Positions 11,540-22,901 of a stretch of DNA of 64,000 nucleotides are shown here, piece by piece. The stretch spans positions 1,028 to 65,027 of the forward strand of contig JAFRJX010000004.1 in assembly GCA_017432025.1 (NCBI GenBank), given 5' to 3'. Within the stretch, counting starts at the first letter, position 1; each line of letters begins with the position of its first letter. A model generated the notes under the pieces. That model was not told the origin of the DNA, made no database searches, and was given only the letters and a program-made list of their open reading frames with translations. The position numbers were made by a program, and so were the translations under genes. The DNA comes from Candidatus Saccharimonadota bacterium (GTDB taxonomy: Bacteria; Patescibacteriota; Saccharimonadia; Saccharimonadales; Saccharimonadaceae).

Positions 11540-13906
11540 ATGAAAAGACTAGTTCTAATCGATGGAAAATCGGTTTTCTATCGAGGTTATTTCGCAATGG
11601 GCGCCCTCAGCCTTTCTGATGGCACGCCAACCGGTGGCATTTATGGTTTTGCCGCCATCGCTATGGAAATTGTTAAAAAATTGCACCCTGACAAAGTTGT
11701 CGTGGCTTGGGATTCTAAAACTTCTGTCTCGAAGCGCCGCGCTATCTATCCAGATTACAAAGCTGGCCGCGTCAAACCGGGCGACGATTTTTATGCCCAA
11801 ATCCCTTATCTAAAAGAATTGATTCTTAATCTCGGCTGGAACTTCGTCGAAATCGATGATTACGAAGCTGATGATATCATCGGTACTCTTAGCCTTCATG
11901 CCGACAACGCTGGTGACTGGGAAACCTACATCATCTCTTCCGATCTTGATATGCTTCAAATTGTCGATGAAAACACCCATATGTGGCGCATTCTAAAAGG
12001 ATTCTCAAACATCGAACAGATTAATGTAAAGGAAGTCGAAGAGAAATACGGCATCAAAAAATCCCAGTTCCTAGATCTTAAATCTCTTAAGGGTGATTCC
12101 TCTGACAATATCCCAGGCGTCCCTGGTATTGGCGAAAAAACCGCTGTCAAACTCTTAAATGACTACGGCTCGCTTGATGGCGTCTATGAGAATCTAGACA
12201 AGATTTCTGGCTCTCTGAAAGAAAAGTTAAGCGCCGGGCGTGACTCCGCCTATATGTCTAAAAAACTTGCCGAAATCATGTTTGACGCCCCTGTTACACT
12301 AGAAGATATCGACGATTTTGTCTTCAATAAAGAAAAAGTCGTCGCCGGCCTCAAGAAACTTCAATTTAACTCTCTGATTCGCAAAATTGAAAAGGAACAT
12401 CCATCTGCACCAACTCCAGAAGCGCCAAAAGCTGCCCCAGTCTTCCCGGAATCCCCAGTTAAACCAGTCGAAGTTCCAAAGGACCTTCCGTTCCTAAGTT
12501 ACGATATTAAAGGAGAAATGCATCAGTCAAAAGATGCTGCAAAGAGAATTCTAAGTGGCGAGAAATTCTGGGATTTATCCCAAGCGGCCTTCCTCATTAA
12601 TCCACTCGCTCGTCCGGAGGAAGAAGAGCGAAATCCTAATCTTGTCGCTGAATATCAAACTCAACTCGAATTCTTCAAAAAGACGCCGAAACTATATAAC
12701 GTTTTAACCGAGCTCGATTTGCCACTCATTCCAGTCCTCTACAAGATGGAAGATAAGGGCATGCTCATCGATCGTGCCTACTTCGATAATCTAAAAACCG
12801 AGTACGAAGCCGAGGTAAAGAAGCTTGAACAAGAAGTTTATTCACTCGCTGGCAAAGAATTTAATGTCAATTCACCGATCCAGCTCTCCGAGGTCCTCTT
12901 TGACTTTCTCCAACTTCCGACCAAGGGTATTAAAAAGACTTCGCGTGGCTACTCCACCGGTGCTAAAGAACTCGAAAAACTAAAAAATCTCCATCCAGTC
13001 ATCGCTAAAATCACCGAGTATCGCGAGGCCGCCAAACTCCTTTCGACCTACATCATTCCAATTCCGGAGCTCGCTGATAAGAACGACCGCATCCATACGA
13101 CCTTTACCCAAAATGTGACCGCCACCGGGCGTCTCTCCAGCTTAAATCCGAATCTCCAAAACATCCCAGTTCGTACCGAAGAAGGGAAGCGCATCCGTAC
13201 CGGCTTTGTCGCACCAGCGGGTAAAGTCCTTGTCTCTGCCGATTACTCTCAGTTCGAGCTTCGTCTTGCCGCCATTCTCTCTGGCGACACCAAACTAATT
13301 GACGATTTCAATTCCGGTATCGACATCCACACTAAGACTGCTTCCGAAGCCTTCCACGTGCCATTTGGTGAGGTTACCAAGAACCAACGCCGCGCTGCCA
13401 AGGTCATTAATTTCGGCATCATTTACGGTATGAGTGTGAAGGGTCTCTCTGATGCTACCGGCATGCCAATTGGCGAAGCCAAACAGTTCATCGACGATTA
13501 TTTCAAACTCCGTGCTCCAATCAAGCAAAAGCTTGAAGCCATCCTGACCCAGGCGAGAGAGGCCGGCTATGTCGAAACCTTCTACGGTCGCCGTCGCCCA
13601 ACTCCGGATGTGAAATCTAGCAACTGGGTGATCCGCCAAGCCGCTGAGCGCGCTGCCGCCAACATGCCAATCCAGGGCACCGAAGCCGATCTCATGAAAC
13701 GGGCCATGATTCATGTCGATAAAGCCCTGCCAGAAACCGCCAAACTCGTTATGCAAGTCCACGACTCACTCATCGTCGAATGCGACGAAAACGAAGCCGA
13801 AAATGTCGCGAAAATCTTACAGCAGGAAATGGAATCCGTCGCGCCGGAACTTGCGATTAAACTAGCCGTTGAAGTCACTATCGGGAAGAATTGGGGCGAG
13901 CTCTAG
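11540..13906 (+). CDS. polA: DNA polymerase I (5'-3' exonuclease + polymerase; 3'-5' exonuclease domain reduced)
   Basis: LIDGKS, EADDIIG, GDSSDNIPGV, TATGRLSS, DYSQFELR, KVINFGIIYG, QVHDSL. Confidence 0.97.
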   Translation: MKRLVLIDGKSVFYRGYFAMGALSLSDGTPTGGIYGFAAIAMEIVKKLHPDKVVVAWDSKTSVSKRRAIYPDYKAGRVKPGDDFYAQIPYLKELILNLGWNFVEIDDYEADDIIGTLSLHADNAGDWETYIISSDLDMLQIVDENTHMWRILKGFSNIEQINVKEVEEKYGIKKSQFLDLKSLKGDSSDNIPGVPGIGEKTAVKLLNDYGSLDGVYENLDKISGSLKEKLSAGRDSAYMSKKLAEIMFDAPVTLEDIDDFVFNKEKVVAGLKKLQFNSLIRKIEKEHPSAPTPEAPKAAPVFPESPVKPVEVPKDLPFLSYDIKGEMHQSKDAAKRILSGEKFWDLSQAAFLINPLARPEEEERNPNLVAEYQTQLEFFKKTPKLYNVLTELDLPLIPVLYKMEDKGMLIDRAYFDNLKTEYEAEVKKLEQEVYSLAGKEFNVNSPIQLSEVLFDFLQLPTKGIKKTSRGYSTGAKELEKLKNLHPVIAKITEYREAAKLLSTYIIPIPELADKNDRIHTTFTQNVTATGRLSSLNPNLQNIPVRTEEGKRIRTGFVAPAGKVLVSADYSQFELRLAAILSGDTKLIDDFNSGIDIHTKTASEAFHVPFGEVTKNQRRAAKVINFGIIYGMSVKGLSDATGMPIGEAKQFIDDYFKLRAPIKQKLEAILTQAREAGYVETFYGRRRPTPDVKSSNWVIRQAAERAAANMPIQGTEADLMKRAMIHVDKALPETAKLVMQVHDSLIVECDENEAENVAKILQQEMESVAPELAIKLAVEVTIGKNWGEL

Positions 13907-13916
13907 TTGTGGAAAA

Positions 13917-13971
13917 ACTCCACATTTAGTGTTAAAAAGTCCTTGACACCACTATATATAGTGTATATAAT
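13917..13971 (+). promoter_or_regulatory. Sigma-70 promoter overlapped by two tandem NrdR boxes
   Basis: TTGACA (13943-13948), 17 bp, TATAAT (13966-13971). Box 2 CCACTATATATAGTGT (13949-13964) sits between -35 and -10; box 1 ACTCCACATTTAGTGT (13917-13932) is 32 bp upstream. Confidence 0.8.
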
Positions 13972-14026
13972 GGATTTCAGGTAATGCTTATAACAAATTA
14001 AAAGTCTAAACGACAGAAAGAAAACC

Positions 14027-14464
14027 ATGAAGAAAATCATCTACCGAAATCCGAATGATGCCTGCACTTTCGACATCAAGCGTTTCGTGAAATCGCTCGA
14101 AAGGTATGCCAAAGTCAGCGAAAAAGAAGTTGCTACTGCACTCGAAGATTTCGAACAATATGAAACCATGCATGTCTCCTGCCTTGTTGAGGTTGGCATG
14201 AGACTCATCGCCGAGAAAAAAGGCGAAGCCGCCGCTAAAGAGTATTTCAAAGAATACGCCGAATACTTCGATGAAGGCAAATTTGAGCGCCTTCGCCGCA
14301 TCACTGGCTATCTCGTCGGTACACTTGATCGTTGGAACGATGCTAAAAAAGCCGAAGAGTCTGCTCGTGTGAAGCACTCTGTTAACTCCGCCATCGATGA
14401 TGCCGAGCGCCTTGCTGCCCTCGAAACTCAAGCGATGGAACAGAACATCGCCTACGCTCACTGA
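14027..14464 (+). CDS. Small NrdD-related protein: degenerate ATP-cone-like N-terminus plus class III RNR glycyl-radical C-terminal motif
   Basis: FERLRRITGYLVGTLDRWNDAKKAEESARVKH matches the NrdD C-terminus; there is no catalytic barrel. Confidence 0.8.
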   Translation: MKKIIYRNPNDACTFDIKRFVKSLERYAKVSEKEVATALEDFEQYETMHVSCLVEVGMRLIAEKKGEAAAKEYFKEYAEYFDEGKFERLRRITGYLVGTLDRWNDAKKAEESARVKHSVNSAIDDAERLAALETQAMEQNIAYAH

Positions 14465-14483
14465 GGTGTGATATAATACGGGT

Positions 14484-15332
14484 ATGCCAGAGCTTCCCGA
14501 GGTTGAGACAATTAAACGTGGTCTAAGTAAGTTTATCATTAATAAGAAGCTTACGAGGACCACGATTTTGTGTGCTAAATCTTTTGTCGGTACCCCTGTT
14601 ACTGGTACCGTGAAAGCCATTCGTCGCTTCGGTAAAGCCCTGATTATCGACTTAGATAACGGTAAATCTCTGATGATCCACCTCCGCATGACCGGACAAT
14701 TGATTTACGACGGCAAGGAACGCTTCGCTGCCGGTCACCCGAGCGATAATTTCATCGATAAACTCCCGAACAGGCAGACCCGCGTTGTCCTTGAATTCGA
14801 CTCCGGCTCGCTCTTCTTTAACGACCAGCGCAAATTCGGCTTCATAAAAGTTATCGACACTAATCAGGTTGAGCAGGACGCTTTCATCAAAAAACTCGCC
14901 AAAGAGCCTTGGCAAATGTCTGGCGATGAATTCTACGAAAAACTGCAAAAGCACAAAAACTCTCCAATTAAAGCGGTCTTGCTAGATCAAACTATCATCT
15001 GTGGTCTTGGCAACATCTATGCCGATGAAAGCTTGTTTATGTCTGGTATCCATCCCGCCACGAAGGCCGGGTCTCTCACCAAAAAGGAAGCGACAGTTCT
15101 TCTTAATATGGCAGATAGAGCCATGAATATCTCCATTGCTTCAGGCGGCTCGACTATGAAAGATTATGTTAAAGCTGACGGCACTAAAGGTGATTACCTC
15201 GACAAATTTGCTCAAATCTTTAATCGGACCGGGAAACCGTGCTTAGTTTGCGGCACCACCGTCGAAAAGATTCGTGTCGCCGGCCGTGGCACCCATATTT
15301 GTCCAAATTGCCAGAGGAGGAAAGATGATTAG
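14484..15332 (+). CDS. mutM: Formamidopyrimidine-DNA glycosylase
   Basis: MPELPEVET, HLRMTG, DQRKFG, GLGNIYADE, C-terminal Zn finger CLVC...CPNCQ. Confidence 0.98.
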   Translation: MPELPEVETIKRGLSKFIINKKLTRTTILCAKSFVGTPVTGTVKAIRRFGKALIIDLDNGKSLMIHLRMTGQLIYDGKERFAAGHPSDNFIDKLPNRQTRVVLEFDSGSLFFNDQRKFGFIKVIDTNQVEQDAFIKKLAKEPWQMSGDEFYEKLQKHKNSPIKAVLLDQTIICGLGNIYADESLFMSGIHPATKAGSLTKKEATVLLNMADRAMNISIASGGSTMKDYVKADGTKGDYLDKFAQIFNRTGKPCLVCGTTVEKIRVAGRGTHICPNCQRRKDD

Positions 15333-22451: not shown

Positions 22452-22901
22452 ATGGACCACAAATTCCGTATTGGAGACAGCAAAGTTCTTGAAAGTCGAG
22501 AAACGGTAGATGGCACCATGATTCGTCGCCGCCGTGAAACGCCGGATGGTCGGCGTTTTACTACTTACGAGCGTATTGAAATGCCACCACTTACTGTCTT
22601 AAAACGTAGTGGCAACAAAGAAATCTTTGATCGTGATAAGCTTCTTCTTGCCGTTAAGCGCAGCGTTGGTAAATTCTTCAATTCCGAACTTGAAATCGAA
22701 GAAGTCATCAACCGTGTTACCGACATCCTCTATTCTTATGGCACCGAGCAGATCACTTCAAAACAAATTGGCGAAGCCGTCCTCGATGTCCTCGCCGATG
22801 TTAACGAAGTCGCTTACGTCCGTTTCGCTAGCGTCTTCCGCGAATTTAAAACTCTCGAAGATTTTGAAAACATATTGAAGGAACAAAAAGGGAAGAAATA
22901 A
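22452..22901 (+). CDS. nrdR: Transcriptional repressor NrdR (no Zn-ribbon cysteines)
   Basis: SKVLESR, IRRRRE, RFTTYERIE, ATP-cone VLKRSG...FDRDKL, VAYVRFASVFREF. Confidence 0.93.
   Translation: MDHKFRIGDSKVLESRETVDGTMIRRRRETPDGRRFTTYERIEMPPLTVLKRSGNKEIFDRDKLLLAVKRSVGKFFNSELEIEEVINRVTDILYSYGTEQITSKQIGEAVLDVLADVNEVAYVRFASVFREFKTLEDFENILKEQKGKK

Follow-up and report, generated by a model that had tools for sequence, protein, structure and literature searches.

The small gene at positions 14027-14464 very probably encodes the trans-acting subunit that bears the radical in a class III ribonucleotide reductase (RNR) split naturally into two genes. It lies in a 64,000-nucleotide stretch of DNA (the window) from a genome of the genus Candidatus Nanosyncoccus, which is known from gut and rumen Saccharibacteria MAGs. 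The sole RNR of this genome, NrdD, stops before the glycyl-radical loop, the product of the small gene supplies such a loop, and no other RNR or glycyl-radical enzyme is encoded; the small protein, referred to here as mini-NrdD or the mini protein, is therefore most likely the radical subunit. We observed complementarity of the two chains, which cover one canonical NrdD without overlap, their co-occurrence (14/14), a common regulatory layout and selection on both genes, and we found no RNR or glycyl-radical enzyme as an alternative. That the gene is one half of a split RNR was among the options of the original prediction, which was made from the window alone, and it was borne out by an NrdD that ends before the loop and a small protein that supplies exactly the missing segment. 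Nothing was found in support of two other options, a decoy for NrdG and action on a host's enzyme.

The features of the window on which the argument draws are the following:
11540-13906, polA, the upstream neighbour of the mini gene.
13917-13932, plus strand, NrdR box 1 (ACTCCACATTTAGTGT), upstream of the -35 hexamer; weight-matrix rank 7th in the genome.
13943-13971, plus strand, sigma-70-type promoter, TTGACA-17-TATAAT, with 12/12 consensus matches; conserved in orthologues.
13949-13964, plus strand, NrdR box 2 (CCACTATATATAGTGT), in the promoter spacer, 32 bp from box 1; best score of the genome, 22.5 bits.
14027-14464, plus strand, coding sequence of mini-NrdD, the putative detached glycyl-radical subunit, 145 aa; open reading frame and profile matches.
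14027-14281, plus strand, N-terminal domain (the head), residues 1-85, predicted ATP-cone-like fold by AF2 and Foldseek; no Pfam ATP-cone match.
14282-14386, plus strand, glycyl-radical loop, residues 86-120, FERLRRITG94YLVGTLDRWNDAKKAEESARVKH, matching the NRDD C-terminus.
14306-14308, plus strand, Gly94 codon (ggc) within RRITGYL, the radical glycine by alignment.
14387-14461, plus strand, C-terminal helix, residues 121-145 (AF2 helix at 125-144).
14484-15332, fpg, the downstream neighbour of the mini gene.
22452-22901, plus strand, nrdR, 149 aa, the presumed repressor for both boxes, with an ATP-cone match and a TIGR00244 score of 118.5 bits.

The 145-aa open reading frame described in the original prediction is real, as is the NrdD-type C-terminal loop with Gly94 that had been read from it. 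In Pfam NRDD, residues 85-117 matched nothing but the final 31 positions (532-562; E 2.5e-7, with a score above the gathering threshold), the protein matched positions 708-744 of the 746 in the NCBIfam NrdD model NF005497, and it aligned to residues 707-738 of P. copri NrdD (8p23). RRITG94YL is an RxxGY radical loop and is invariant among 35 family members, and more than 2000 close homologues of similar length exist. This small free-standing protein carries from the larger enzyme the radical loop alone. With profile matches to the end of NrdD only, the ten-stranded barrel with its Cys finger loop is absent from it, and it has no Zn-ribbon CxxC pair; as had been claimed, neither the catalytic barrel nor the Zn-ribbon cysteines occur in the open reading frame or in the polA and fpg flanks. 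The mini protein gave no match to the pyruvate formate-lyase-type Gly_radical family PF01228 at E<=10.

The gene had also been called monocistronic. This is not established, because there is no terminator-like site in the 20 bp between the mini stop and the fpg start. The same 20 bp contain no obvious ribosome-binding site for fpg, and an extended -10-like motif, TGATATAAT (window 14466-14486), ends 6 nt before the fpg ATG; judging from these letters, the fpg transcript may be leaderless or nearly so.

Besides the mini gene, the genome, a MAG of 859 kb in 8 contigs that is 97% complete, contains exactly one other NRDD match, in a large gene on contig C1:
Locus L001 1447-3642 (contig C1), minus strand, truncated nrdD, 731 aa, matching Pfam NRDD positions 2-529.
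The large NrdD begins with an ATP cone and also contains the barrel and a Zn ribbon (C...CPHC). It ends in CPHCGRLEGDVPFEKVCNCAKGK followed by the stop codon, directly before the RRITGY loop and 4-6 residues short of the radical glycine. It aligned to residues 5-704 of 8p23 (ATP cone, barrel, Cys loop and Zn ribbon) and to positions 1-709 of the 746 in NF005497; with the mini protein taking up that profile at 708-744, the two proteins tile one canonical NrdD with no gap or overlap. An nrdG gene (TIGR02491, above cut-off) overlaps the nrdD stop codon. The genome search for nrdD, nrdG, nrdJ and nrdAB that the original prediction had proposed returned this truncated nrdD and nrdG, no full-length nrdD and no class I or II RNR in the 97%-complete genome. 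Nor is there another glycyl-radical enzyme: a genome-wide PF01228 search gave one marginal match, inside NrdD. The RRITGY loop missing from NrdD is encoded in this genome solely by the unlinked mini gene.

Three other connections between the small gene and a large enzyme were rejected. Split-intein trans-splicing fails for lack of space for an N-intein, as the truncated NrdDs all have just 1-17 residues beyond FEK/FERL; read-through or frameshifting to join nrdD and the mini gene is impossible here, with the genes on different contigs; and a spare part for another glycyl-radical enzyme finds no such enzyme in the genome. Two features of the large protein were seen in passing. In all Nanosyncoccus NrdDs, full-length or truncated (L001, L089-L110), RDPVCG(F/Y)SG replaces the RCLDCGY of P. 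copri, so one canonical Zn-ribbon cysteine, the first of four, is missing genus-wide. The truncated NrdDs (L001 1447-1520, L101-L110) have short variable tails after FEK/FERL that are often cysteine-rich (CNCAKGK, CSCAKGK, EQNCNC, EQNCHC, CDCVNCDCADCSCTKKD); one, ending FERLG, has none. Such cysteines might stand in for a Zn ligand or have a redox function.

The original description of a consensus promoter with two NrdR-type boxes 32 bp apart proved accurate, and the arrangement is general: 40/40 orthologous loci examined have two palindromic NrdR-consensus boxes 31-32 bp apart, one of them inside the promoter spacer. A weight matrix was made from the orthologue boxes and scanned across the 859-kb genome. 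Box 2 of the mini gene came first, followed by a box upstream of the nrdD-nrdG operon, which is likewise paired at 32 bp. By its predicted tandem boxes and the presence of nrdR in the genome, the mini gene would belong to the NrdR regulon, and with the top two boxes at the mini and nrdD promoters the two enzyme halves appear to be the two main NrdR targets of the genome. Box 1 of the mini gene overlaps a terminator-like hairpin after polA. The nrdR gene itself follows directly after ftsZ, and its product lacks all four Zn-ribbon cysteines, with an N-terminus of MDHKFRIGDSKVLESR...RRRRETPDGRRFTTYE in place of CxxC...CxxC; its TIGR00244 score falls just under the cut-off (118.5 versus 124.65 bits). 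The conserved boxes suggest that this Cys-less NrdR still binds DNA.

We surveyed relatives for the two genes. Within Nanosyncoccus (genus g1), NrdD is truncated in 14 genomes, all of which have the mini gene (truncated NrdD without it, 0/14), and full-length in 13, of which 5 have it; in a second genus (g30), 2 of the 3 genomes with full-length NrdD have it, and other families of the order had no NrdD at all in the survey. In eleven truncated loci checked, nrdG lies directly downstream of nrdD wherever the sequence extends far enough. In the tree of NrdD proteins, a single clade (support 100/99) holds all the truncated ones and lies within the full-length ones; its sister is a genome with full-length NrdD only. 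The survey counts (14/14 versus 5/13) give a hypergeometric value of about 6e-4; because the truncation happened only once, what counts is that none of the 14 descendant species has lost the mini gene. In the mini-gene tree, the copies from the truncated-NrdD clade are likewise monophyletic. Their stem branch is long (0.6 changes per site, versus 0.08 for the matching NrdD stem), which hints at a burst of change in the mini protein on becoming obligatory. Comparison of mini loci (L009-L020, L114-L125) showed that in this clade polA and fpg flank the mini gene without exception, but in either orientation: some species have an inversion of the small cassette, which carries its own promoter. The mini gene of the other clade has unrelated housekeeping genes as neighbours.

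These counts bear on the alternative that the mini protein is purely a GrcA-like spare, which repairs oxygen-cleaved NrdD only and is dispensable for normal activity. Such a spare would account for a mini gene under purifying selection also beside intact NrdD (in the 5 genomes of the genus and the 2 of another), and the genetic truncation point is near the expected oxygen-cleavage site of the full-length chain. However, the NrdD of this genome, like that of 13 relatives, lacks a radical glycine, so the mini protein is the only possible carrier and not a spare; we regard this alternative as unlikely. The spare part that the original prediction had considered thus fits the relatives with both full-length NrdD and mini protein, but here there is no cis domain to spare. 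It is probably the ancestral role of the mini protein.

The loop reads FERLRRITGY in all Saccharibacterial NrdDs and all mini proteins and FERIRRITGY in Firmicutes, and distant mini proteins have a G(V/Q)(Y/F)(S/T)xxEK tail that resembles the tail of full-length Saccharibacterial NrdD. On the strength of the common FERL loop and the like tail, the mini gene probably originated from the 3' end of a Saccharibacterial nrdD. The simplest history starts with a radical-domain gene beside an intact NrdD, where it would have served as a GrcA-like spare or alternative radical domain; later, several lineages would have lost the mini gene and one, that of this genome, the cis domain. The distribution fits reciprocal loss of redundant radical domains from an ancestral GrcA-like role, as is expected if the two domains are interchangeable.

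The original prediction had also proposed that the N-terminal half is a degenerate ATP cone. The predicted fold agrees with this, but no sequence profile detects a cone. AF2 gave the whole mini protein a pLDDT of 72, with the loop region below 50; the head modelled well alone (pLDDT 87, pTM 0.74), with the element order beta-beta-alpha-alpha-beta-alpha-alpha. In Foldseek searches of the PDB, the top 45 matches to the whole model and the top 47 to the head model were all ATP-cone proteins (NrdR, cone-bearing NrdB, NrdA and NrdD). The head model superposed on PDB cones over about 86-92 columns at an rmsd of 3.4-4.3 A and a TM of 0.56-0.67; Foldseek E-values were just 0.07-0.3 for this model and 0.02-0.3 over both searches, and identities were 6-16%. 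Homology by sequence was pursued in four ways and rejected: PF03477 (ATP-cone) matched neither the mini protein nor any of the 35 family members at E<=10, a genome-wide PF03477 search found cones in NrdD and NrdR only, a PDB profile search detected no cone, and hhalign of the mini head against the genus's own NrdD cones gave 13% probability, out of register. The stretch equivalent to VxKRDG is IIYRNP in the mini protein and has YF, YK, YH, YT or KK in orthologues, so the phosphate-binding KR is not conserved in the family. Because the predicted fold alone matches the beta hairpin and four-helix bundle of a cone, sequence methods are silent and the KR is not conserved, we call residues 1-85 ATP-cone-like, as a predicted fold only, with a degenerate nucleotide site. 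One possible origin of the head is the NrdD cone, by an internal deletion in a duplicated nrdD. A phage origin of the head was rejected, as the N-domain profile has no relative in IMG/VR; matches to the mini protein in the phage collection covered only loop residues 82-127, mostly inside full-length phage nrdD genes.

A cone-like head on a gene in the NrdR regulon might suggest a regulator or decoy that would tune RNR activity without supporting catalysis: nucleotides would be sensed by the head, and the tail would compete for NrdG or obstruct the NrdD barrel. This would leave the truncated NrdD without a radical source, though its gene is strongly conserved. Moreover, the KR of the nucleotide motif is replaced by YR, YF, YK and others, and no part of the mini gene is more constrained than the radical loop (dN/dS 0.02-0.04). 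We judge such a role to be improbable.

Selection on both genes is strong. The dN/dS comparison across orthologues that had been proposed for the mini gene gave about 0.08 for the clade with truncated NrdD and 0.12 for the other, and truncated nrdD has a pN/pS of 0.09 with its catalytic motifs intact; as synonymous sites are saturated (pS about 0.8), these ratios show strong purifying selection only, not exact values. There are no frameshifts or internal stops, and truncated nrdD and mini gene are unbroken in 14/14 genomes except where contig ends cut them. These results speak against a decaying class III system, in which NrdD has lost its radical domain, the host bacterium supplies the dNTPs, and the mini gene is a relic or has some unrelated function. 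Saccharibacteria do have reduced genomes and depend on hosts, and other families of the order lack NrdD; the argument that a sole RNR must work is itself not watertight, because epibiont Saccharibacteria could live on salvaged deoxynucleosides. Yet nrdG has been kept alongside the two intact, selected genes, and the NrdR boxes are conserved at both loci, which makes decay improbable. Relatives do have an intact nrdD, which the original prediction had linked with an assembly collapse or recent deletion, but we found no collapse, and the truncation is old, conserved and under selection in 14 species. An assembly or binning artefact (a collapsed full-length nrdD, or a mini gene from another organism) might be feared in a MAG of 8 contigs and is barely credible, given the same two-locus layout in 14 independently assembled genomes and loci inside long contigs (264 kb and 71 kb), with the mini gene between the core genes polA and fpg.

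In the split class III RNR that we favour, NrdG would abstract the Gly94 hydrogen on the small protein, free or docked. The mini loop would insert in the barrel of truncated NrdD beside the Cys loop (GCRT, Cys425) and, in the manner of a cis domain, generate the thiyl radical there. What the N-terminal domain does is a guess: the ATP-cone-like head may tether the mini subunit to NrdD or NrdG and help docking or activation, possibly through a cone-cone contact. Cone-cone contacts drive oligomerisation in NrdR, in NrdA and in cone-bearing NrdB. Oxygen destroys glycyl-radical enzymes at the radical glycine, and to our knowledge GrcA/YfiD for pyruvate formate-lyase is the only remedy for this damage. 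In a split enzyme, the damage would hit only a 17-kDa part that is cheap to remake, and only the small subunit would be remade.

More tentatively, the radical could be carried on an exchangeable 17-kDa cartridge whose degenerate head docks on the NrdD cone or on NrdG, so that recruitment, RNR activity and recovery after oxygen are coupled to the ATP/dATP state. We put this forward as a possibility rather than an expectation. If it is true, the relatives with both forms represent an intermediate step, with a true NrdD spare part, and the question of whether spare parts exist beyond pyruvate formate-lyase is answered.

One genus that holds full-length NrdD with the mini gene, full-length NrdD only, and truncated NrdD with the mini gene is a natural genetic experiment on the spare-part question. 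The pattern speaks for the ability of a free radical domain of the NrdD type to stand in for the built-in one; it is natural genetic evidence that a radical domain can be detachable, or a spare, in an enzyme other than pyruvate formate-lyase. The enzyme would be the first two-chain class III RNR and would give a new role to the ATP-cone-like fold. It may help to explain dNTP synthesis in oxygen-exposed gut epibionts with class III as their only RNR, and its three small genes make a directly testable system.

Gut Firmicutes offer independent parallels. Operons of nrdD without a loop, a small loop gene and nrdG occur in Anaerovibrio sp. RM50, Schwartzia and several Oscillospiraceae, and we found none described in the literature searched; the parallels (nrdD without the loop plus a small loop gene, or unlinked loop genes) also include Selenomonas, and other Clostridia have unlinked small loop genes beside full-length NrdD. 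As in the Saccharibacteria with split genes, these truncated NrdDs end after the Zn ribbon, and RRITGY (as FERIRRITGY) is found on a small protein of its own. The small Firmicute proteins differ in being 51-103 aa long, headless or with an unrelated alpha/beta head, in being encoded mostly within the operon, and in having FERI rather than the Saccharibacterial FERL. At one such locus (L050), two in-frame stops and a ribosome-binding site separate nrdD from the loop gene. Anaerovibrio sp. RM50, a cultured rumen Negativicute, encodes at L041 1617-4724 an nrdD of 756 aa without the loop, a 101-aa loop protein and nrdG, and its genome (G191) has a second truncated nrdD (profile positions 1-532) without a loop gene of its own; it would be a tractable organism for work on a split class III RNR. 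In Oscillospiraceae, Eubacteriaceae and Clostridiales (L052, L068, L073, L084, L088), unlinked 87-94-aa proteins with a small alpha/beta head and FERIRRITGY stand beside full-length NrdD, and these are candidates for a second, unrelated set of NrdD spare parts.

We compared the proposed two-chain enzyme with three known systems. The first is the canonical single-chain NrdD with NrdG (P. copri 8p23, S. thermophilus 9d3x, phage T4 1h78), of which 8p23 aligns to both proteins, and nrdG is adjacent to nrdD here. The difference lies in the break of the chain after the Zn ribbon and before the radical loop; an unlinked locus encodes this loop, with additional parts on its N- and C-terminal sides. 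A split class III RNR was not described in the open-access reviews and phylogenomic papers searched. A split class II RNR is known, NrdJa/NrdJb of, for example, Pseudomonas aeruginosa (PMC9669993). There too the catalytic chain is divided between two genes, with a C-terminal functional module on the second chain, but the enzyme is of class II and has no radical-storing residue, and the genes are adjacent, whereas nrdD and the mini gene are on different contigs. Among glycyl-radical enzymes, a June 2026 review names formate lyases as the only ones with known spare parts, those elsewhere being ‘yet to be determined’ (PMC13450708), and PMC8683613 says much the same. The spare parts in question, GrcA/YfiD of E. 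coli and Y06I of phage T4, are autonomous glycyl-radical cofactors for pyruvate formate-lyase. Like the mini protein, they are small free proteins with a C-terminal copy of the radical loop of a large enzyme and an N-terminal part besides; they are activated by the partner's activase and replace a missing or cleaved domain, and by analogy the mini protein may do the same. GrcA coexists with intact enzyme, and so does the mini protein in relatives of this genome (5 congeneric and 2 other-genus genomes). In contrast, the loop of GrcA is of the pyruvate formate-lyase type (PF01228, IPR011140) and that of the mini protein is NrdD-type, without a PF01228 match, and the N-terminal part is a disordered stretch in GrcA and Y06I and a predicted ATP-cone-like folded domain in the mini protein. 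Finally, unlike that of GrcA, the partner of the mini protein is genetically truncated here, which would make the small subunit, itself placed in the NrdR regulon by its predicted boxes, obligatory rather than spare.
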